A DNA stretch of 63,995 nt, filler included, from Basidiobolus ranarum (lineage: Eukaryota), in assembly GCA_040143965.1 (NCBI GenBank). It is 7 parts of 7 records of this genome, joined end to end, with 100 filler letters (N's around TTAATTAATTAA, not from the genome) between each part and the next. Parts side by side here need not be neighbours in the genome. Positions count along the whole stretch, not along the records: positions 27,753 to 36,876 come from JASJQH010000869.1; 6 more parts are not named here. The stretch is one strand, 5' to 3'. Of this stretch, positions 9,163 through 59,330 are shown piece after piece. The position numbers were made by a program, and so were the translations under genes. Position 1 is the stretch's first letter; the number at the start of each line of letters is the position of its first letter. The notes beneath the pieces are model-generated. The model did no database searches. It had not been told where the DNA came from and saw only the letters and a program-made list of their open reading frames with translations.

Positions 9163-9262
9163 NNNNNNNNNNNNNNNNNNNNNNNNNNNNNNNNNNNNNN
9201 NNNNNNTTAATTAATTAANNNNNNNNNNNNNNNNNNNNNNNNNNNNNNNNNNNNNNNNNNNN
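9163..9262. other. artificial contig linker
   Basis: N44-TTAATTAATTAA-N44 (stops in all six frames). Confidence 0.99.
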
Positions 9263-18410: not shown

Positions 18411-18510
18411 NNNNNNNNNNNNNNNNNNNNNNNNNNNNNNNNNNNNNNNNNNNNTTAATTAATTAANNNNNNNNNNNNNNNNNNNNNNNNNNNNNNNNNN
18501 NNNNNNNNNN
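18411..18510. other. artificial contig linker
   Basis: N44-TTAATTAATTAA-N44. Confidence 0.99.
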
Positions 18511-27652: not shown

Positions 27653-27752
27653 NNNNNNNNNNNNNNNNNNNNNNNNNNNNNNNNNNNNNNNNNNNNTTAA
27701 TTAATTAANNNNNNNNNNNNNNNNNNNNNNNNNNNNNNNNNNNNNNNNNNNN
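27653..27752. other. artificial contig linker
   Basis: N44-TTAATTAATTAA-N44. Confidence 0.99.
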
Positions 27753-27816
27753 GCTCAGTGGTTAGAGCACCTTGCTAGAGTGAAGGAGGTCCCAGGTTCA
27801 AATCCTGGCCAGACCA
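27753..27816 (+). tRNA. 5'-truncated tRNA-like sequence (anticodon AGA on a short-variable-loop body); pseudo-tRNA or SINE head
   Basis: D arm GCTC-AGTGGTTA-GAGC; anticodon arm CCTTG-CTAGAGT-GAAGG (one G.G mismatch); V loop AGGTC; T arm CCAGG-TTCAAAT-CCTGG; 3' acceptor strand CCAGACC-A. Confidence 0.7.
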
Positions 27817-27885
27817 ATATTTCTCCCTAAATAATTTCAATACTTCCAAGGCTTTCCATACCTTCTTGGCAGTTTTAGCTCTTGA

Positions 27886-28232
27886 AAATTGAATCAGCAT
27901 TGCCTAAACTCCAATATAGTCATATATGGCTTAGTATTTAGTTTCTTATTTCTTGTTTAGATATTGCCCATTATTCTCAATTGGAATTTATTAAAAATAT
28001 TTTTACCAACTTGGAAGTTGTCAGATATACAGATTTTTTAAACTTACACTGGAAGCCCCAAACTTTGTGAACATGTTTCAGCAATCTTCCTTAACATATT
28101 ATACCCATTGACTTGTTTACATCTGGACAAAACTATAAATGGCAACTTTGAACTCAATAAATCAATAAGTGATAACCACCAATTTCTTGAATTCTCCAAA
28201 CCACTTCCAACAGGCTCCCAAATACTCTATCA
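27886..28232 (-). mobile_element. solo LTR family A (decayed)
   Basis: CAGCATTGCCTAAAC...CACTTCCAACAGGCTCCCAAATACTCTATCA, homologous to the other copies. Confidence 0.85.
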
Positions 28233-28517
28233 ATATCTCCTCAAGAATTTTCAGACTACAAGGTCAGATTATATGAGAGTAATCAACTAGTGCATCTATA
28301 TATCATAGTGGGCAGTGAAAGGAAAGCACACATATTTTTATTCCATGAAAATGGGAATATATACCTGACATTATGAAACACTATTACGAGTAGATTCATT
28401 AATCCACATGAGGTTTTGATGAGCTTTTACACCTGATTCTGCTCTACACAGTTAGTGGCAATAAAAGTAATACTGTGTTGGAAAGTTATTGCATTTTTAG
28501 AGTGGTAACCTTTATTT

Positions 28518-28988
28518 TCAGTTATCAATGATGGTCAGAGTTCCAGCAAAAGATTGGGGCTTCCCATTACTTCCAATATATGATAGATCCCCTTGTTTCA
28601 ACATGTCAATAATCATTTGCCACTGACTTTTAACCACAGTAACACAGCCATAGCTAATGATGCCAGGATGTAAACCCATACCATTTCGTCTAACGCCATG
28701 ATCCAAACGCGAATTCCAAGTTTGACCATATCCATAATACCCATTGCCTTCTTGAGGTGGCATTTTTTGATGAAGATTAAACCAATCAATCCTATGGTCA
28801 TCATGAATTTGGTGTTTATCCACTATATAACTGCTCAGCGGGGTGGGTCCATTCTCCTGGGTCTCATCTTCACCTTTAGTGCTCACAGTGCTAACGGTAG
28901 TTGTTTTTCCATGTAAGCTGACATCCAATTTACAGCTGCTACGGTGATAAACCAATTTAACAGCATTAGATTCGTCAATTATTGGCAT
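28518..28988 (-). CDS. DUF2778/Tlde1-like L,D-transpeptidase-fold protein, intronless, probable bacterial origin
   Basis: 156 aa with GPTPxxxYxV, DWFNL, GVRRNGMGLHPGIISYGCVT (H107, S112, C115) and terminal GTLTII; TATAAATA on the minus strand about 45 nt upstream of the ATG. Confidence 0.75.
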   Translation of the reverse strand: MPIIDESNAVKLVYHRSSCKLDVSLHGKTTTVSTVSTKGEDETQENGPTPLSSYIVDKHQIHDDHRIDWFNLHQKMPPQEGNGYYGYGQTWNSRLDHGVRRNGMGLHPGIISYGCVTVVKSQWQMIIDMLKQGDLSYIGSNGKPQSFAGTLTIIDN

Positions 28989-30662
28989 GTTGCGAAGAAT
29001 ACGTGATTTACTGTCAATGTGGAATATTTGCTATTTATAAGTAATAGCTAGGGTGTGGTGGCTTAGAATGCCATACAAATCAATCAATATTGTCTCTAAT
29101 CAAGCCGGCTTTTTGTGTTGTATTGTGATACTTACACTGGGTATTTATTATGAGATTTGTTAATTTGTGCTAAGTATATCTAGCAAGGAAGCAAGATTAG
29201 AGTAGGATTTTAGACTGGAGTCGTAGACATCCTTCCGTATGGTTTCTCCCGGGCTTCTTATTGCTTATTGATACATTTCAAACGCGTTTGAGCTGAAGCA
29301 GTTTTCCTAGTTACTTGCTAATAGATGGAATCCAAGATATTCCAGTACATTTCCTACATCAAATGAATAGATTAGCTAACAAGGAAAAAGGCACTACTAT
29401 CGATTTGACGTCGTTTGGAAGATGGCACATAGCCGCAAACAAAATTTTAGCATTTGATGTATCCCTGAGGATGATTTCGTCAAAGACTTTGAAGTGTTGT
29501 GCTATGCTCAATTTTCAGAACAAAGAGCTCATCTATCTGATCACAAGCACCCCTTCACCAAGCATGTATGACTGACATGGAACAGAATAAAAATTAATAA
29601 ATATACTATGGGATGAGAAGTAAATACATAATCCATCAAGGTAGATGAACCGTTAGAGCAGCTTCTGGATGCTGGTTGCTGCATTTGGCTTTTACCTAGG
29701 GTTCCTCAAAAGTTTAATGTAAAATTGAATGTTATGACAAACTTCAGGCTTTTACAACAATTAGAATAATCCAACAATTTACAAGGTAAGTAGTGACTTT
29801 ATCAAGTCAGCTATTTAGGCCAGCTATACATCAGGTATTGCCCACTGTCGATTTCACTCTAATCTGTGATCTAGGTTGGTTACATATTCCACCGTCGGAA
29901 TGTGTAGTTAATTGTCTAGCAGTACTCTCTCCAGATTCGTCCCTGCTTTGTTATCTTCAGATGTGTTCGCACATTGGGGGCGTACTATTCTCTACGCTGA
30001 TCTCTGTGGGATATAGAATTCAAGCTGGATTTGCTATTTAAACTTGTAGATCTGACAGAACATTCCTACCAACTCCGTTTGTATGAAAGCGGACGCTTTA
30101 ACCTGCATTTGGACTTAGTTATGTCTAGACAAGTAAGAATGGATTGCTCCTTGAGTCACTATTATTGAAGACCGAATTAGGTTTATCATTTGTTCCACAC
30201 CTCCTTGAGCTATATCTAATTACCTGATTTAGATTGATTTTTGATGCTTTGATATTCTAGTCCATGGACCTTTGTCATGTCTTGGTAACTTTATTACACT
30301 CCTTGTACAATCATTTGTCTTCTCTTGAACCCATATTAGAAAATCGGTTCTCAGATAATCATTTACTCAACTCTGTAGATTGAATCTTCCGTTTTGCCTT
30401 TAGGTATTAATAAGAGTCTTCAATCTATTGTGACCATCTCTACATCCTGCCTATTTACCTCTGCCTTCATAAATAAGAAATTTCAAAACGTTAAAGATGG
30501 CTATAATAATTCCAATTGAGTACTATGCCCTGATAGCGCTCTAATGGGTTTTATATTATGATAGCTTGTAATTAGAAGATAACTCGAGACAAGCCATTGT
30601 ACAGTTAGCCCCTAGTTTAAATCTCTATTTATTATTAACACACAATATATAACGAACTTCTT

Positions 30663-31686
30663 TTAATACAACTTTGCACTCTTTATATCTGCGCTATCAC
30701 CGACAGTGCCATTCAGCATATCACTTTCAGCCTTAGATTGGTTCATAGCAAAACATTGCTGTTCAATCAACTCGGGTCGTAAGTACCGGCCTGGGGGAAT
30801 TATGATATAGGCTAGTATGGCAATTAACATCATTAACGAGTCGAATACATAAAAGTACACTTCGTGCGAGATAAGATAGCCTTGATATCCTTGAGCGAAT
30901 TCCGCTATGCGATAAACTGATCGGATTAGAAGTGCTGCAATGTTAATCCAAATTGGCCAGTAAAGAATCCGCCAGTCTGTTGCTCCCTTTTGATCATCTC
31001 TGAGTAGGCGAAATGTGAACTCTGGTGTGCGTTGGACATAGAAAGTCATGATGGAGAAAGTAATGAGAGATGCCAATGCCAAGCTGAGACCAACCAGAGC
31101 AATATTAGAACCTATGCTTGCCACAGATTGAATAGCCATCATACCACCACCCATTGCTTGAACTCCAAAGCAAATAATATCAATTGATAAAAAAGCCTTC
31201 TCGATGACAGCCGGTTGAATAAATTTTGTCCGATAATTGGAACGAAGGATTCTATTGAAGAAATATCAATAACTACTCTTTCACTTCTCTCGTTGGACCA
31301 TAAAAGTAAACACTTACATATTTGCTACTGCCAAATAGCTCCCCAGGGCAATGACAATAGGAGGAAGTAATAAAAATACAGTAGACGCAGCGAAGCTTGC
31401 AATAATTCCATCATTTGCTGGTTGACCAGACCATATACGAATGGCAAATCCTATCGCTTCACCTAGCACAAGAAAATTTGGATTAAACTAGGTTTTTTTG
31501 ATAAAAGCACTGATGTTTCAATTTACCAGCAGCTCCGCTCGCAACTCCATACATATAGCGGGTTTTGTACCGATAGGATTGATAAGAAACAATAACCGTT
31601 AAAATGGCGAATATAACTAGCGCAACAATGGCCAGCGGTATATTAGGATCATAGCGATATAAATTGTAATGAGGAGTGACCGTCAT
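30663..31686 (-). CDS. RTA1-like membrane protein (lipid-translocating exporter family), copy 1, 3 exons
   Basis: YRYDPN, EAIGFAIRI, LLPPIVIA, IDIICFGVQAMGGG, LLIRSVYRIAEFAQG, HEVYFYVFDSLMM; ATG at 31686. Confidence 0.9.
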
Positions 31687-33001
31687 GAGTGCTAAATGAT
31701 ATGCCAAAGAATTTGATAGAAGAGAAGATCTCTGTTACGTGCTTTTATGTGGATTTGCTTTATGCATCTAAATCTGCCACTATCACTAATTTGGCTAGCG
31801 TTTGTTTGGAAGAACGGCCATTGATCATCCGCTGTAGGGATTTTTTTCTCATTTTACTAAACAGAATTCTATTTATAACTCAGTTCGTTCTGCCAAGAAA
31901 TCAACTTCTATACTGATCGTTGTTGGAAAAGCTAGATACACTACCAAGTTTAGCCTTTGCTTCCTTGGCGTTTGGATAGATCTCTAAGGTGTCGGAATAA
32001 CGGGGAAACATGTACTCTAACCTTACCACTAGGACTACAACTATATATCTGAAACATCGTGTAAGCGAGAGTTCAGTGAGCAACAAAGTTTGTAACATGG
32101 ATAATTACAGTATAACATTATTTGTAGGAGGATATTGTGCTTGCAACATCTCGTTATAAGCTCTGGGAATGTTTGCAACACAAAATATCACATGCCTTAG
32201 ATGAAACGTTTTGGGGGAAGCATTAAAGAACGTATTAGCACATATCAACCACAGATTACTGGCACCAATGAAAGGCCATAAACACGGACAATTTAACATG
32301 CAATAAACCAAAGGTTAGTTAATAGAAAAGTTAACTTATTTGGTTCTTATTGGATGATGAACAGTACTTGGTGGAAATGATGTACTTTTTAACCAAATTC
32401 CAAATTAGGCCACGTTGATTTTAGAATCTTCGCTAGATAATATCAAACCTTTATATCGTAAACCATTGGTGTTTGGAGGATTCTTCGTGAATACATTTGT
32501 CAATAAAAGAAATCGTTCAGAGATACGAAACCCACGGAGCCTTGTCTGTGGCTGAGATAAAGAATCAAACTTCGAAGAAGTGTCCACTCAAAATTTACGT
32601 GTCATCTCTTCTCTGTATTGTTACAATTTAAAAATCGTCACAACTTTATTTTTGGATTTAAATATCAATATTACTGAGAAAACGAGCAAATTACGGGATA
32701 ACGAGTAATAGATACCGAGAAATTTATATTGTATACTATTGTAGTAGTAATATTTAACTATGATTTTTCTGTTAAATCTAGATCATCTAGGCTCATATCA
32801 CAGGAATAGTAATTAAATAATTTGCCGAGCTCTTACCAAGATATATGAAATACGTGTGACTATAAATACTTATTATGTCATTACTCATTCCATCATAAAT
32901 GATTAGCACGCTCTTTGTATAGTATCAGCCATTAACTAATGCTCTGATCCACATTACAACAACCATCCTGGTTAAGTTTAGAAATCAAGGGCTGTATTAA
33001 G

Positions 33002-33121
33002 TATTGATGGAATCAATCGCCTCAAGCACGACATCCCATCTCTCTCATATTCACTGTCAAGGAACTACCTCGTCCTAGACAGGGTTGGGGACTAAAGACT
33101 GACTCAACTTAATCCTGTATC
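33002..33121 (+). promoter_or_regulatory. 120-bp TauD-upstream element, near-identical to 36757-36876
   Basis: Ungapped match with 2 mismatches at offset 3755; contains TGACTCA. Confidence 0.75.
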
Positions 33122-33307
33122 ATCATCACTTGTAACTACTTGTTGAAGTCAAAGATTGAGAATTGCTTTGTTTGGTGGCGTGCTCAAGACAATTCCACAC
33201 CAGAATTTCCCATTATGTGTTTTGGTCAATGCAGATGCCAATAAATAGAGTTCACTTGTCCAAGTACACCTCACAAACGCATCTGCTTCTTCTCAACATA
33301 TCAAATC

Positions 33308-34396
33308 ATGTCTGTAACTATCGAAAGTGTAGCTAATGAAACTCAAAAACTAACCCTTGAGACTTCCAAGAAATTGAGTCCATCCCTCCGAGCATTGTTG
33401 CCTACTTTTCCTAAGGTCGACTCTCCTCCACTTGAAGAGGTCTCTGTGGTTGATCGTGCTTCCAATGCCTCGCCGGAGAAACGGGCCCTCCTAGACGCAG
33501 TGTCAAAAAGAATAGATCTGACCACACACATTGGTACTGAACTGCATGGTATTCAGCTATCACAATTGTCAGATCAGCAAAAGGATGAACTTGCTCTACT
33601 AATTGCTGAGCGAGGAGTAGTCTTTTTCCGTGACCAGGAGTTGGATGTACATCAGCAATTGGAACTGGGTCGTTTCTATGGTCCACTCCATGTTCATCAT
33701 ACAACACCACATCCTGAAGGTCTGCCAGAGGTCCATCTGATCTATCAGGATGAGAATGTCGGAGTAGACAATAGTTACCTTCCCTACCCTGCTTCCCAAG
33801 ATTATTGGCATAGTGATGTGTCCTATGAGTTGCAACCACCTAGCTATACCTCACTAAAAATCCATGTCCAACCTGAAGTTGGCAGTGATACTCTTTGGGC
33901 CAGTCAGTATGCAGCCTACGATAAGCTAAGTACTACATACAAAAGATTTGTGGAGGGTCTTGTAGCTGTGCACAGTGGTGTCGAACAAGCTGATGATGCT
34001 CGTAGAAAAGGTACCTATGTTCGCCGTGAACCGGTCTTACATGAACACCCAGTTGTTCGCACACATCCAGTTACCGGCTGGAAAGCATTGTATGTGAATC
34101 CAGTATTTACCAGATACATCAAAGGAGTGAGCAAGCGGGAATCAGACAGTATTCTACAATTCCTGTATTCCCACATTACTGGAAGTTCTGACCTTCAAGT
34201 TCGATTCAAATGGTATCCAAACTCGGTTGCTATTTGGGACAATCGAGTTACTGTACACACGGTGGCACGTGACTCGTTTGGCTCTTATCGCCATGGAACC
34301 CGAGTGACACCTCATGGTGAGAAGCCATACTATGATGCAGAGAGCAAGAGTCGGGCTGAAGAGTTTAGAAAGAAGATCAAGCAACAAACTGAATGA
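33308..34396 (+). CDS. TauD/TfdA Fe(II)/2-oxoglutarate dioxygenase (Jlp1-like sulfonate dioxygenase), intronless
   Basis: LIAERGVVFFRDQ, WHSDVSYE (HxD), GSDTLWAS, HPVVRTHPVTGWKALYVN, AIWDNRVTVH. Confidence 0.93.
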   Translation: MSVTIESVANETQKLTLETSKKLSPSLRALLPTFPKVDSPPLEEVSVVDRASNASPEKRALLDAVSKRIDLTTHIGTELHGIQLSQLSDQQKDELALLIAERGVVFFRDQELDVHQQLELGRFYGPLHVHHTTPHPEGLPEVHLIYQDENVGVDNSYLPYPASQDYWHSDVSYELQPPSYTSLKIHVQPEVGSDTLWASQYAAYDKLSTTYKRFVEGLVAVHSGVEQADDARRKGTYVRREPVLHEHPVVRTHPVTGWKALYVNPVFTRYIKGVSKRESDSILQFLYSHITGSSDLQVRFKWYPNSVAIWDNRVTVHTVARDSFGSYRHGTRVTPHGEKPYYDAESKSRAEEFRKKIKQQTE

Positions 34397-34483
34397 TCCA
34401 TCTAAATTCGGTGTGCACGAGAAGTTACGTGTGTAGGGGAAGTTTTAAGTGAACATTTAATCTGTGAAGTATCAAATAAATGA

Positions 34484-34557
34484 TGCATTCCATTCATCAA
34501 CTTTTGCACTCCATTCATCAACTTTTGCATTCTATTCATCAACTTTTGCATTCCATT
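34484..34557. repeat. 21-bp minisatellite, ~3.5 copies
   Basis: (TGCATTCCATTCATCAACTTT)n between the convergent TauD and RTA1 3' ends. Confidence 0.9.
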
Positions 34558-34801
34558 CCATATACAATTACAACTCTAAGAAAATTTATACTATTCCTCA
34601 TAGGTATTCATTCGAATAGTAAAAAGGATAAAAATGTGTAATGCTGTCAACATGTATCATAGCCTTATTTATGATGTAGTCAGTTCACATCTCCGTTGTT
34701 AAGTTTCTATTTATTTTTAGATGAACAAAATATTTAATGGAGATTTTAGTGCAGGTCTATATATTAAAGCACGGACTTAATTTAATACAATTTCGAACTT
34801 T

Positions 34802-35749
34802 TCATGCCTGTACCATGGCAAGGCTTGGTTGTTCGACTAGTTCGGGGCGTAGGTACCGACCCGGCGGGATTATGATATAAGCGAGAATAGCAATTAGCAT
34901 CATCAGCGTATCAAAAACAAAAAAGTACGCTTCATGTGAGATAAGATAGCCTTGGAACCCTTCAGAGAATTCAGCTATACGATAACATGATCGGATTAGA
35001 AGTACTATAATGTTAATCCAAAGTGGCCAGTAGAGAATACGCCAATTTGTTGCACCTTTTTGATCGTCCTTGAGCAATTGGAATGTGAAGCCTGGTGTAC
35101 GCTGGACATAGAAAGTCATGACAGTGAACGTAAAGAGAGAGGCCAAGGCTAAGCTGAGGCCCGCTAACCCGATATTAGAGCCAATTTTAGCTATTGAAGT
35201 AATAGCCATCATACCACCACCCGTAGCTTGAACTGCGAAGCAAATAACATCAATTGATAAAAATGCCTTCTCAATGAAAACCGGTTGGATAAACTTTGTC
35301 CGATAATTGGAATACAGGATTCTGTTAGGAAAATATTAATAACCGCTTTTCTAAAGGATCCTTCATAAAGCAAGTACTTACATCTTTGCCACTAATAAAT
35401 AGCTCCCCAGGGCAATGACGATAGGAGGTAGTAACAAAAACAAAGTAGATGCAGCATAGCCTCCAATAATGCCATCATTCTCAGGCTGACCTGACCATAT
35501 ACGAATTGCAAATCCTATGATTTCACCTAGAACGAGAATATCTCGATTAAACTACGTCACCTCAATAACTGTACAACATTCAGACTTACCAACAGCACCA
35601 GCTGCGACTCCATACATATACCGGGTTTTGTATCGATAGGATTGATAAAAAACAATTGCCCCTAAGACTGCAAAGATCACTATCGCAGCAATAGATAGCG
35701 GTACACTGGGGATGTAGCGATAATAGTTATAATGGGGAGCAATAGGCAT
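34802..35749 (-). CDS. RTA1-like membrane protein, copy 2, 3 exons
   Basis: Paralog of 30663-31686 with the same intron positions and shared blocks (YQSYRYKTRYMYGVA, ILYWP, LIAILAYIIIPPGRYLRPEL); ATG at 35749. Confidence 0.9.
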
Positions 35750-36756
35750 GGACGATAGTTGAAATACCAAAGAAATCTAAGAATGTCAACATCTCTGTTA
35801 CGCGCATTTTATATGAATCTGGTTTATGTATGCCATATCTACCACAACATACTCCTGTCACTAATTTAGATCCCAGCATACTGCTATTTCTAATTTAGCT
35901 AGTTCTAGCTGAAAAGAACGGCCATGAATTATCCGATCTAATAGTATTATACTTACATATTCCCTAAATACTATTTGGAATTCTTTTTTAATTCTGTTAT
36001 TATCCGTCTAGAAGGCTTTTTATCATTGCGGAGTCTAACCTGTGGTTTCTGGGAGTTTGAAATCATTTCTTCCCTGAATTACGGACAAATGTATACACCA
36101 ACTTAGCAATTAGGACTAGCTTCAATAGCGACAGTAGTCTATATTGCCTGGATATCCCCGTAAATTATCGAACACAATGACATTTCTGTGTGTTAGAGAT
36201 GGTTATGCTTGTTGTATTTGCTTGAAAATTCCGAGATTATTTATAAAACTGAAAAATTTCCCTCCTTCGATAGACCATTTTTGTAGAGGTTATAAAGAAA
36301 GTATCTACGTCTCTGCCAACAAGGAATTGCTGGCACCAATAGTAAGGTCATAACAACGTCAATTGCGTCTTCTTTCAGAGTATTTGTTATCAGTATCCAA
36401 TAAGTTAAGGGTAATAGGGAACGGGTTATACCATTTAAAAATTAACCCTTTTGGTCAAGGTTCGATAATAATTAAGCGTTCCATAATTTTCACGTGAATC
36501 AGGCGCTTCAAAATCTTCACGTGCAAAGCTCGTTTTTGTTCACTCATATGGTAACAAACCTACCGAGCGTTTATACATATGGAATACCGCAATGAGTATG
36601 GAATATATGTTTGTTATTATTCATTCCATCAGAAGCAAATAACTTATTTTTTGTATACATGTCAACCATCAACTAATGCTCTAACCTACACGAACGTAAT
36701 GTTTATAACTACACTTACCGTCCTGGTTAAGTACAGGTCTACTCCGTAAAATTAAA

Positions 36757-36876
36757 TATTGATGCAATCAATCGCCTCAAGCACGGCATCCCATCTCTCT
36801 CATATTCACTGTCAAGGAACTACCTCGTCCTAGACAGGGTTGGGGACTAAAGACTGACTCAACTTAATCCTGTATC
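36757..36876 (+). repeat. second copy of the TauD-upstream element, running into the contig end
   Basis: Near-identical to 33002-33121; implies a second TauD copy beyond the contig break. Confidence 0.85.
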
Positions 36877-36976
36877 NNNNNNNNNNNNNNNNNNNNNNNN
36901 NNNNNNNNNNNNNNNNNNNNTTAATTAATTAANNNNNNNNNNNNNNNNNNNNNNNNNNNNNNNNNNNNNNNNNNNN
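36877..36976. other. artificial contig linker
   Basis: N44-TTAATTAATTAA-N44. Confidence 0.99.
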
Positions 36977-46093: not shown

Positions 46094-46193
46094 NNNNNNN
46101 NNNNNNNNNNNNNNNNNNNNNNNNNNNNNNNNNNNNNTTAATTAATTAANNNNNNNNNNNNNNNNNNNNNNNNNNNNNNNNNNNNNNNNNNNN
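46094..46193. other. artificial contig linker
   Basis: N44-TTAATTAATTAA-N44. Confidence 0.99.
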
Positions 46194-55300: not shown

Positions 55301-55400
55301 NNNNNNNNNNNNNNNNNNNNNNNNNNNNNNNNNNNNNNNNNNNNTTAATTAATTAANNNNNNNNNNNNNNNNNNNNNNNNNNNNNNNNNNNNNNNNNNNN
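55301..55400. other. artificial contig linker
   Basis: N44-TTAATTAATTAA-N44. Confidence 0.99.
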
Positions 55401-56841: not shown

Positions 56842-58446
56842 TTACTGTTGGAAACTGAAACCACCTTGGGGCATAGAGACATCTGATTGGAATGTGAAGG
56901 CTCCGGTGTTAGCATCAACTTCTGGGGCAAGGCCAGTATCTTCGTCCTCTTCATCACCAAAGTACTTGTCAATGATTGTGTAGGCCTTTTGGTAAATTTG
57001 TACGTTATCATGGATTTGGAGATTGTGGATTTTCTCCATACCACCTGCTTCTTCGATATAAAGAGCGAATTGGTTTTCACCTGTCATCTCCTTATCAAGT
57101 TCACCGACCTTGAGAATGTTCTCAAGACCGTCAAGTGCAACTTGAATGATCTTGTTATCCATACAAGTCAAGAGGTCACACAAAGGCTTGATGCAACCAG
57201 CGCTGACAAGGTACTTGACTTGATCGGGTCTGTTTAAGCCACCTGAGGTAGCATTGGAAACGGCCCAACAAGCTTCCTTCTTGGTTTTGAAGTCAGCAGT
57301 AGAGAGAACGTGAATAAGAGGAGGAATAAGGTTGGCATCGATGACTTGTTGAATTTGCTCAACAGTACCAGCGGTAATGTTGGAGATGGTCCAACAAGCT
57401 TCCTTTCTGATTCCATCTTTAGGGCTGGATAGAAGGCTAAGAAGGGCAGGCAAGCATCCAGAGTTAAGCATAATCTGAGTTTGTTGGTCATCACCAGTGA
57501 CAATGTTACCGACAGCTCTAAGGGCAGGGGTTTGTACTGATGTAGAGGGATGCATCAAAAGCTCGATAAGACGGCGAGATACTCCGGACTCAATAACAGC
57601 TTGAATCTTTTCGTTAGTACCGTCGGACAAATATGAGACAGCCCAGCAAGCATCACCAAGAACCTCATCATCATGAGAATACAATAGTTTGTTAAGAGTT
57701 GGAAGGGCAGGGGAAATGTATTGCCAGTCTGGTTGTGGGTTCTTACCACGGCAGAGATTAGACAAGGTCCAGGTAGCATTACGAATCAAGGAGCTCTTGG
57801 CATTCTCATTGAGTAACTGTAAGAGAGGAGGTAAAACACCGTTTTGAAGTACGTAATCACGGAAGCGGGTGGAGTCACCAGCAATATTACCCAAAGCCCA
57901 AACAGCTTGCTCTCTGACGTCGGGTACAGGGCTGCTTAAGAGTTCAATGAAAATAGGAACAGCACCACTCTCGAGGACAATTTGAGTTTGGTTAGAGGAG
58001 CCAGATGCGATATTAGTAAGGGCCCAAGCAGCCTCAAATTGAAGCAAAGAGTGAGGAGAACGAAGGAACTCCACAAATCTGCTTACAACCCCACATGCAA
58101 TGACCTCTTCAATAGGAGGGTTGGTTTCCTTAGAAAGGAGCTTACGAAACTTGGTGCAGGATTGAAGTTGTTCGTCGACGTTTTCGGAGTATAGACTTTG
58201 AACTAGAGCAGGTAGTTGACCTTCCAACTCGGCAGCCATGGCCATGGCAGCACTGTCATCATCTTCACTGTCAGACATATCACCAGTAGGAACAAGCATG
58301 TTTCTTTTTTTGGCAAGATTTTCTTCACGCTTTTGCTTACGAATCTCCACCTGAGCCTCTTCACGTCTACGTCTTATTTCATCAGACTTGAACAAACCCT
58401 TGGCTTTGTAAGCATTACGTCTGTGTTCGGGAACTTTAGACTCCAT
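56842..58446 (-). CDS. SRP1: importin alpha (Srp1/Kap60), intronless
   Basis: IBB domain [27 protein letters not shown] repeats [38 protein letters not shown]. Confidence 0.98.
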
Positions 58447-59330
58447 TATTGAACAAGTAAGTTAAACGGGTAAAGGTATAACACAACAAGGAAAAAGCAG
58501 AATGAGATTCAATTAAACTGAACGAATGATGGGGAACCACTTTTAAAAATGAAGAAAAAAAACAGTAAATTGCTTGAATTAATAACATTTCATCCTGATT
58601 CTCTGCTAGCATTCTCGGCCATATACCCCACTTTGTAGAATAATCGACTTTATAAAATACATCCTGTAAAATTGGCCCATTTCGGCTTCCACGTATTTTT
58701 CTTTTTAATCCATTAAATCTAGAAGTTTGCTTATCTATAACTAAGAGGAGTAGGTCCTTGTTTATTTACCTTTCATCGAAATACAATGCGAGCCGCAATG
58801 CTTAACCAATAGTAACTGTTCATTGGTTATTCTGATGATCCATTCATTCTATCATATTCGATTACGTTTTGAGAAGAAACTGATTTGACAGCAAAGACTG
58901 GAAGAATATGGTATTTAACTTGCAACAACCATTGGTCAATAATTCATTAGTTGCGCAGACAGAAAATATTAGTGAGTAACAGATCACATGACTGATGATA
59001 AACAATACACATCTTCATGGTCACTCAAAATATCCGGGTTCTGGGAAAGCTACCATTGGATTGAGTGGAATGAAGAGATCCTTTCCAAATGTGGGAATAA
59101 TGCTACGATTAGGTGATTTTGGGCAAGATTTAGCATTAATCAAAGAGCAAACGGTCACTAATGATAATTACTGATTGAATGCAAAGAAACACAATGTCAG
59201 AGTTCTATATAAGGCTCAGAAGGGTGGTTCGGAGTTTGTTGTTAAATCAGGGCGTATTTCCTGGAAAATCTACCTTCGTTACCGTTGTTGACTTTTGAGG
59301 ATCTTACAGCTTCAACACAACTCTTGGTCC

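Follow-up and report, generated by a model that had tools for sequence, protein, structure and literature searches.

How does a fungus come to carry a gene whose product resembles an enzyme of bacterial peptidoglycan, and what might such a product do there? The question is raised by a short open reading frame (ORF) at positions 28518-28988, minus strand, of a 63,995-nt window of Basidiobolus ranarum DNA (assembly GCA_040143965.1; by "the window" we mean this whole stretch). The original prediction took the ORF for a horizontally acquired relative of DUF2778/Tlde1, antibacterial effectors of the bacterial type VI secretion system (T6SS). We consider it probable, with real room for doubt, that the locus is an intact gene for a 156-amino-acid (aa), single-domain cysteine peptidase of the YkuD/Tlde1 fold that derives from the C-terminus of an Rhs toxin and acts on peptidoglycan.

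The reading frame, its fold and its catalytic residues

The ORF runs from ATG to TGA through 156 codons and a stop, intronless and without internal stop codon, as had been described. The window contains 20 stop-to-stop ORFs of at least 156 aa, whereas 100 first-order Markov simulations gave 0.32 on average and never more than 3; the open frame is therefore not a product of chance. The long frames that were scanned are exons of recognizable genes. Its guanine-plus-cytosine (GC) content is 40.3%, and both GC at third codon positions (GC3; 34.4%) and codon index (0.743) fall within the ranges of 12 other ORFs of the window (24-43% and 0.71-0.79, respectively). A tblastn search found no second copy of the gene within the window.

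The protein, hereafter P0001, consists of a domain that begins at Met1, with no Rhs or other delivery module. The motifs on which the original prediction rested are all present in the translation, in the order given: GPTPLSSY (G47 to Y54), WFNL (W69 to L72), GVRRNGMGLHPGIISYGCVT (residues 98-117, G98 to T117, including H107, S112 and C115) and GTLTI (G149 to I153). C115 is indeed the cysteine to which that number had been assigned. The claimed absence of a signal peptide is likewise borne out: maximum Kyte-Doolittle hydropathy over 10 residues is just 0.40, and there is no N-terminal hydrophobic stretch.

Both flanks hold candidate signals. The octamer TATAAATA lies 44-51 nt 5' of the ATG, where a TATA box had been proposed. 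The octamer is in place and a TATA box is possible, yet the window holds 9 copies where 6.35 would be expected, a count equalled or exceeded in 19 of 100 shuffles. With no enrichment, the motif is compatible with a promoter and proves nothing. Right behind the stop codon is AATAAA, read from the sequence without statistics, a possible poly(A) signal.

In Pfam, P0001 matches Tlde1_dom (PF10908, formerly DUF2778) at E 5.5e-5 over 90 residues, with a score of 24.0 bits that lies under the curated gathering cut-off of 30.1 bits. Because of this shortfall P0001 is placed in a divergent subfamily of the Tlde1/YkuD superfamily and is not a formal Pfam member by its own score. The DUF2778/Tlde1 identity first proposed, and the profile match expected with it, thus stand as regards the L,D-transpeptidase fold, the short His-Cys motif and the kinship to Tlde1_dom and YkuD, and fall short at the Pfam cut-off. 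Among 40 relatives, 34 match PF10908 and 16 match YkuD at E ≤0.01; a homologue from Gemmata stands above both curated cut-offs (34.2 bits for PF10908, 28.7 bits for YkuD). Searching with the family profile brought up 89 proteins, and by our own count of the table 43 carry a precomputed PF10908 assignment.

An AlphaFold model built from the alignment of the 40 relatives reached a predicted local distance difference test score (pLDDT) of 92.4 and a predicted template modelling score of 0.87; a model made from the single sequence was discarded (pLDDT 34.8). The alignment-based model was compared with 48,161 representative chains of the Protein Data Bank (PDB), of which 20 matched at Z ≥5 and 14 at Z ≥8. 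The top 20 range from Z 6.0 to 12.2, and rank 21 falls to Z 3.2. Judged by title, 19 of these 20 chains are of L,D-transpeptidase or L,D-carboxypeptidase type, the other being 4xxt, a peptidoglycan-binding amidase/peptidase fusion. The best match is Pgp2 (Z 12.2, 124 residues aligned, root-mean-square deviation 3.2), followed by Csd6 (Z 11.4). Further matches are Ldt of M. smegmatis (Z 10.6), Bd1075 (Z 10.2), Tlde1a (7uma; Z 9.6, rank 6, 110 residues aligned, root-mean-square deviation 3.2) and DpaA (Z 8.5). In a comparison seeded by Foldseek, 77 of 997 chains lay at Z ≥8; Tlde1a, sixth in the exhaustive comparison, was not among the 50 matches listed there. An independent comparison with the ESM Atlas leads to the same fold class. 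The structural resemblance to Tlde1 that had been anticipated is therefore found in the model, as part of a wider resemblance to chains of this fold.

Conservation, scored in the alignment of 40 sequences, centers on the same motifs. W69, Y87, R101 and H107 are invariant, and P50, L72, G109, S112, G114, C115 and T117 are kept in at least 90% of the sequences; C115 is also invariant in an alignment of nine eukaryote-type sequences. P0001 thus has the histidine and the (S/T)-x-G-C motif of the catalytic type (H107 and S112-Y-G-C115), with His107 the predicted catalytic base and Cys115 the predicted nucleophile. The gap between them is 7 residues, compared to 9 in Tlde1a (H121, C131), and is far below the classical YkuD spacing; a passage of a preprint names short His-Cys spacing as the feature that sets DUF2778 apart from YkuD (bioRxiv 10.1101/2020.02.18.954545). 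The arginine six residues before the histidine (R101/H107) appears to parallel R115/H121 of Tlde1a, judging by the residue numbers given in part of PMC9638812 and not by alignment.

Relatives and phylogenetic position

In order to find the relatives of P0001 we searched 1.84 billion representative sequences exhaustively with phmmer. This gave 45 non-self matches at E ≤0.001, and 29 matches were looked up by name. Two proteins, P0023 (1623 aa) and P0038 (989 aa), were dropped as spurious: they aligned in 20 and 6 short stretches, respectively, showed no match to the family hidden Markov model, and are probably repeat or low-complexity false positives. Eukaryotes account for 5 of the 29 named matches and come from five distant lineages. 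A transcript of Physarum polycephalum, 43% identical to P0001, is among the closest matches, along with the metagenome protein P0003 (46%). The chytrid Rhizophlyctis rosea has a relative on a 203-kb contig (KAJ3042171.1), and that of Tetradesmus obliquus (A0A383WCX2) bears the automatic UniProt label "DUF2778 domain-containing protein"; Actinia tenebrosa (XP_031550165.1) and a transcript of Globobulimina turgida are further eukaryotic matches. When P0001 alone was used in a word-indexed homologue search, no close homologue was found among 5.8 billion protein clusters. Viral contigs, searched with two alignments for a giant-virus or phage vector, gave no confirmed match.

The bacterial side points to Rhs proteins. 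One of the 29 named matches, P0016, is an "RHS repeat-associated protein", the remaining names being uninformative. The domain is C-terminal, after Rhs repeats or the Rhs-core end motif, in P0039, P0016, P0004, P0014, P0017 and P0018, and P0039 combines it with an RHS_repeat match at 120 bits. Several bacterial-side relatives show a signal peptide, then the Rhs-core end motif, then the domain. Homologues are present in metagenome-assembled genomes (MAGs) of Gemmata and Gemmatales, and proteins with a Sec signal in Gemmata-type planctomycetes. The nearest bacterial relatives are thus Rhs C-terminal domains and Sec-signal proteins, and no evidence for the proposed link to T6SS effectors was found. 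The bacterial side is sparse too, for in the phylum of the Gemmata homologue only 6 of 301 sampled genomes match at E ≤1e-5, 3 of them over the catalytic domain.

A side observation concerns one Gemmata MAG, where a 97-aa ORF without Pfam match (locus L001, 6570-6863, plus strand) overlaps the stop of the homologue by 4 bases, in the position where an immunity gene is expected. The Gemmatales locus L002 has no ORF of at least 90 aa there.

A tree of 59 rows and 152 columns was built with IQ-TREE and rooted on PF10908-like rows. It left out fragments, near-duplicates, rows not spanning the domain, the long-branched P0041 and three of every four PF10908-like proteins. P0001 belongs to a clade of eight rows (support 99/94) together with Physarum, Rhizophlyctis, a Tetradesmus-like protein and four metagenome proteins (P0003, P0006, P0050 and P0054). 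It lies within a larger clade of 30 rows (100/97), the others being Rhs or secreted types and Actinia. Globobulimina and two EukProt proteins lie elsewhere in the tree.

The eight-row clade differs from its surroundings in what it lacks. None of its seven full-length members has an N-terminal hydrophobic segment (maximum 10-residue hydropathy 0.26-1.52), whereas such a segment is present in each of the 21 other relatives examined (1.89-3.70); we therefore call the clade leaderless. Its members are also poor in cysteines: counting the catalytic one, 7 of the 8 rows have 2-3, compared to 5-10 at the aligned positions in most Rhs-type and PF10908-like rows. Since a Gemmata-like subgroup is cysteine-poor too, cysteine loss is not unique to the leaderless clade. 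The copies of Actinia, Globobulimina and EukProt (P0020, P0042, P0123 and P0137) differ from the leaderless clade in being of secreted type: they bear signal peptides, are rich in cysteines and branch at other points of the tree. This placement suggests that eukaryotes took up secreted forms on separate occasions.

To this arrangement we applied the approximately unbiased (AU) test, with groups partly chosen after the tree was seen. Placing the eight named eukaryotes in one clade was rejected (p-AU 1.7e-7), and a single clade was still rejected after addition of the four metagenome members of the leaderless clade (p-AU 1.7e-4). Because the leaderless clade is nested and a single eukaryote clade is rejected, a horizontal origin from a bacterial toxin is well supported by the tree, which also indicates several independent entries into eukaryotes overall. 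Horizontal acquisition, as first proposed, is thus strengthened by a phylogeny of bacterial and eukaryotic homologues in which the clade falls within bacterial toxins. The notion that the acquisition was private to the fungus is not, as the clade also holds Physarum, the chytrid and the Tetradesmus-like protein. The leaderless clade may have attained its spread by a single ancient entry followed by losses, by transfer from eukaryote to eukaryote, or by repeated entry from close donors.

Possible roles and alternative explanations

On the reading that we prefer, the C-terminal toxin domain of a bacterial Rhs-type polymorphic toxin would have become a stand-alone eukaryotic gene, and its chemistry would most likely be that of Tlde1, Pgp2 and Csd6. 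Part of PMC9638812 describes Tlde1 as an L,D-carboxypeptidase that also performs D-amino-acid exchange on peptidoglycan. In P0001 the thiolate of Cys115, activated by His107, would attack the bond between the L-centre of residue 3 (meso-diaminopimelate or L-Lys) and D-Ala4 of the tetrapeptide stem. A thioester would form on the carbonyl of residue 3 with release of D-Ala4, to be resolved by water (L,D-carboxypeptidase activity) or by an amine or D-amino acid (exchange or transpeptidation). On intact sacculi the outcome would be fewer cross-link donors and a weaker bacterial wall.

Where such an enzyme would meet its substrate is less straightforward. The loss of the signal peptide and of disulfide cysteines points to a reducing, cytosolic location for the proteins of the leaderless clade. 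Because the protein looks cytosolic, contact with peptidoglycan would take place inside the cell, where bacteria invade or are engulfed or muropeptides are imported, or else after unconventional release or hyphal lysis. We favor a role against bacteria because of the toxin ancestry, and it is for such a role that the gene may have been domesticated. A bolder version holds that an Rhs toxin domain, stripped of signal peptide and disulfides, circulates among unrelated eukaryotes, namely zygomycete and chytrid fungi, a slime mold and a green alga, as a cytosolic, cell-autonomous antibacterial or peptidoglycan-processing enzyme; this we regard as a possibility worth stating, although a doubtful one.

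A number of observations weigh against a peptidoglycan-active enzyme of toxin origin. In addition to the Pfam score below cut-off, NCBIfam returned no match for P0001, and sequence searches of the PDB with P0001, the 40-sequence profile, a PF10908-bearing relative and the Gemmata homologue gave no significant L,D-transpeptidase or Tlde1 match, so that the link from P0001 to known structures runs solely through comparison of folds. In the (S/T)HGC motif, Tyr113 stands where the second histidine would be, at a position that varies among relatives. By analogy this replacement need not inactivate the enzyme, because the H129A variant of Tlde1a retains exchange activity, as reported in part of PMC9638812. 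Nor is it obvious how a leaderless, cysteine-poor protein would reach bacterial walls. The annotated proteins of Basidiobolus ranarum showed no orthologue; the gene could be strain-limited or unannotated there. DNA of relatives, sought in metagenome contigs of the Joint Genome Institute with an alignment and with P0003, yielded no confirmed match and hence no basis for a ratio of nonsynonymous to synonymous change (dN/dS). As regards the tree, the four metagenome members of the clade and the PF10908-like outgroup rows are without organism assignment, and the Physarum member is a transcript that could be a contaminant. Finally, Basidiobolus and the chytrid together were not rejected by the AU test (p-AU 0.225), which means that the number and direction of transfers among eukaryotes are not fixed.

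Given the same chemistry, the role could be metabolic or sensory. P0001 would then be a cytosolic L,D-carboxypeptidase that trims imported peptidoglycan tetrapeptide to tripeptide, either for nutrition in bacteria-rich gut, dung or soil, or in order to blunt or shape signalling by peptidoglycan fragments, much as in bacterial cytoplasmic peptidoglycan recycling. The ldcA gene of aphids, bacterial in origin, offers a precedent (described in part of PMC9116674). A leaderless, cysteine-poor clade would suit such a function, and the best structural matches, Pgp2 and Csd6, are L,D-carboxypeptidases; their advantage over the transpeptidases, at about Z 10, is just 1-2 units. The ancestry is one of toxins, not of recycling enzymes, and the 9.1-kb contig holds no muropeptide importer or partner enzyme, its Pfam-identified neighbors being RTA1 and TauD only. 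We think this role unlikely.

Alternatively, the fold may have been repurposed for an intracellular substrate other than peptidoglycan, with D-amino-acid-containing non-ribosomal peptides, protein transpeptidation and an intracellular conflict or allorecognition toxin as candidates. The predicted cytosolic location and the loss of the second motif histidine would fit, as would the presence among the structural matches of DpaA, an enzyme of L,D-transpeptidase fold that acts on a protein substrate. Fitting, too, is the expansion of non-ribosomal peptide synthetases (NRPSs) in Basidiobolus by horizontal transfer, rich in bacterial types (part of PMC7466969). Against this, R101, H107, S112, G114 and C115 are kept as in the peptidoglycan-active relatives, the clade spans organisms that have no common secondary metabolism, and no NRPS gene lies on the contig. 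Repurposing of this kind seems to us improbable.

Nor do we give much credence to a long-standing gene of eukaryotes or fungi that reached this lineage by vertical descent with massive loss, or by transfer from other eukaryotes rather than from bacteria. The monophyly of the leaderless clade, the unrejected fungal grouping within it and a fully host-like composition would all follow from such a history. It accords poorly with the nesting of the clade within bacterial Rhs and secreted types, with the rejection of an all-eukaryote clade (the partly post hoc choice of groups notwithstanding), with the small share of eukaryotes among the named matches and the distance between their lineages, and with the absence of a close homologue among the protein clusters searched.

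Least probable is a non-functional relic or an artefact of assembly or contamination: the gene is known here from DNA sequence alone, the assembly is one of short contigs and the protein is listed as a singleton in the collection searched, but 156 intact codons compare with a simulated mean of 0.32 such ORFs per window, no catalytic or core residue has been lost although identity to the nearest relatives is only about 43%, composition equals that of the host, and intron-split fungal RTA1 genes share the contig.

The last point depends on the make-up of the window. Six spacers of the form N44-TTAATTAATTAA-N44 (9163-9262, 18411-18510, 27653-27752, 36877-36976, 46094-46193 and 55301-55400) divide it into pieces of 9162, 9148, 9142, 9124, 9117 and 9107 bp and a last piece. 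The window is therefore not one molecule but a series of contigs in order of decreasing length, with a six-frame stop spacer at each junction, and gene linkage is valid only within the 9124-bp contig that holds the gene (Table 1). The same length is on record for the longest contig carrying P0001. In RTA1a, the stretch 30663-31265 matches positions 59-206 of the Pfam RTA1 domain and 31314-31487, in a different frame, matches positions 6-52; because consecutive parts of the domain are thus split between frames, we infer an intron. Host-like composition and the presence of intron-split RTA1 genes on the same contig make contamination, or a fresh bacterial insert, unlikely, much as had been argued from the setting of the gene. 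That argument had invoked intron-bearing RTA1 genes and a long terminal repeat (LTR). Two RTA1 genes are there, RTA1a being split between frames; the LTR was not confirmed, only a direct repeat of 126 nt being found (98% identity; 32996-33121 and 36751-36876, the second copy ending at the contig end). The repeat may be one that broke the assembly, or it may be what had been called an LTR.

Table 1. Window positions of the gene, of its predicted catalytic codons and flanking signals, and of other features of the contig.
Feature	Position	Strand	Basis
CDS of P0001, 156 aa, leaderless, single-domain, L,D-transpeptidase fold, Tlde1/YkuD-related	28518..28988	-	ORF, PF10908 match, model, codon usage
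Codon of His107, predicted catalytic base	28668..28670	-	Invariant in 40-sequence alignment
Codon of Cys115, predicted catalytic nucleophile (S112-Y-G-C115)	28644..28646	-	At least 90% of 40 sequences; invariant in 9-sequence eukaryote-type alignment
TATAAATA, possible TATA box	29032..29039	-	44-51 nt upstream of ATG; not significant alone
AATAAA, possible poly(A) signal	28511..28516	-	Directly after stop codon
9124-bp contig holding the gene	27753..36876	.	Bounded by N44-TTAATTAATTAA-N44 spacers
RTA1a, neighboring fungal gene, at least one intron	30663..31487	-	Pfam RTA1 positions in two frames
TauD-family dioxygenase exon, neighbor	33245..34396	+	PF02668, E 7.9e-60
RTA1b, tandem duplicate of RTA1a, about 4.07 kb apart	34802..35335	-	PF04479, E 6e-38

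Other features of the window were noted in passing. The RTA1 gene and its upstream region are duplicated in tandem (30663-31836 and 34802-35940, 72-82% identity; repeat families D2-D4 and D6), with the TauD-family gene between the copies. The octamer TATAAATA stands 5' of each RTA1 copy as well, on the same strand (31870-31877 and 36238-36245, both minus). On another contig, an importin-alpha ORF (56842-58461, minus strand) shares 90% and 85% identity with two proteins of Basidiobolus ranarum and at most 76% with the next, which hints at a gene duplication in Basidiobolus and marks the source as a Basidiobolus-like zygomycete.

Novelty and comparison with known systems

Full-text literature searches found no description of a eukaryotic enzyme of L,D-transpeptidase fold or Tlde1-like type, and the automatic label on the Tetradesmus entry is the only prior trace found. 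The bacterial wall-degrading weapons borrowed by eukaryotes include Tae/Dae amidases, lysozymes and NlpC/P60 enzymes. The borrowing of antibacterial wall enzymes is a known phenomenon, of which neither this enzyme class nor a leaderless form had been part. Passages of earlier work place the DUF2778 superfamily in alpha-, beta- and gamma-proteobacteria (bioRxiv 10.1101/2020.02.18.954545) and list Tox-LD-peptidase for bacteria only (Zhang et al. 2012, PMC3482391). The main texts of two papers on horizontal gene transfer in early-diverging fungi, Basidiobolus among them (PMC7466969 and bioRxiv 10.1101/2021.12.02.471044), make no mention of transpeptidases or peptidoglycan; the supplementary list of PMC7466969 may include the gene.

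If active, the clade would represent a new enzyme class among transferred antibacterial genes. In view of the missing signal peptide one must ask in what setting a eukaryote would encounter peptidoglycan stems in its own cytoplasm, a question that becomes ecologically concrete in Basidiobolus, a gut-associated fungus noted for its uptake of bacterial genes (part of PMC7466969). Should P0001 prove to be a cytosolic antibacterial or peptidoglycan-processing enzyme, it would be the first of L,D-transpeptidase fold to work inside eukaryotic cells in the literature searched, and would add a new branch to the immune defenses of microbial eukaryotes, directed at bacteria that are engulfed or live within the cell.

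Of known systems, Tlde1a and its kin, the T6SS antibacterial effectors of Salmonella and other Proteobacteria, share with P0001 a single domain of the L,D-transpeptidase fold (about 160-170 aa), the catalytic histidine, the S-x-G-Cys motif and a His-Cys spacing much shorter than that of YkuD. P0001 differs in its 7-residue gap, in the tyrosine that replaces the second histidine (H129 in Tlde1a), in its sub-cut-off Pfam score and in its eukaryotic host. No T6SS, VgrG, PAAR or Tldi/DUF2195 immunity gene is present on the contig, and the surroundings of the bacterial relatives were not examined for T6SS. The nearest bacterial relatives are the Tox-LD-peptidase domains at the C-termini of Rhs polymorphic toxins, which carry the same signature of H, S and C (part of PMC3482391); P0001, in contrast, stands alone and starts at Met1, without their delivery module, immunity gene or cysteines.

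The best structural matches, the L,D-carboxypeptidases Pgp2 of Campylobacter jejuni and Csd6 of Helicobacter pylori, align over 124 residues that take in N-terminal strands left uncovered by ordinary transpeptidases. Their sequence identity to P0001 is only 11-13%, and they are periplasmic cell-shape enzymes, not toxins. Both also have extra dimerization and NTF2-like domains.

Similar in concept, finally, are the Dae enzymes of ticks and other eukaryotes and the NlpC/P60 hydrolases of Trichomonas, which, as parts of the literature on them relate, are likewise bacterial peptidoglycan-cleaving weapons taken into eukaryote genomes. The function of Dae2 and of the Trichomonas enzymes has been shown experimentally; proteins of the P0001 type are known from sequence and model. 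The analogy to tick Dae drawn in the original prediction holds in that a eukaryote has an enzyme of bacterial derivation, and breaks down at two points. Dae and NlpC/P60 enzymes have a papain-like amidase fold, as opposed to the L,D-transpeptidase fold of P0001, and those enzymes are secreted, whereas P0001 belongs to a clade that is leaderless and poor in cysteines.

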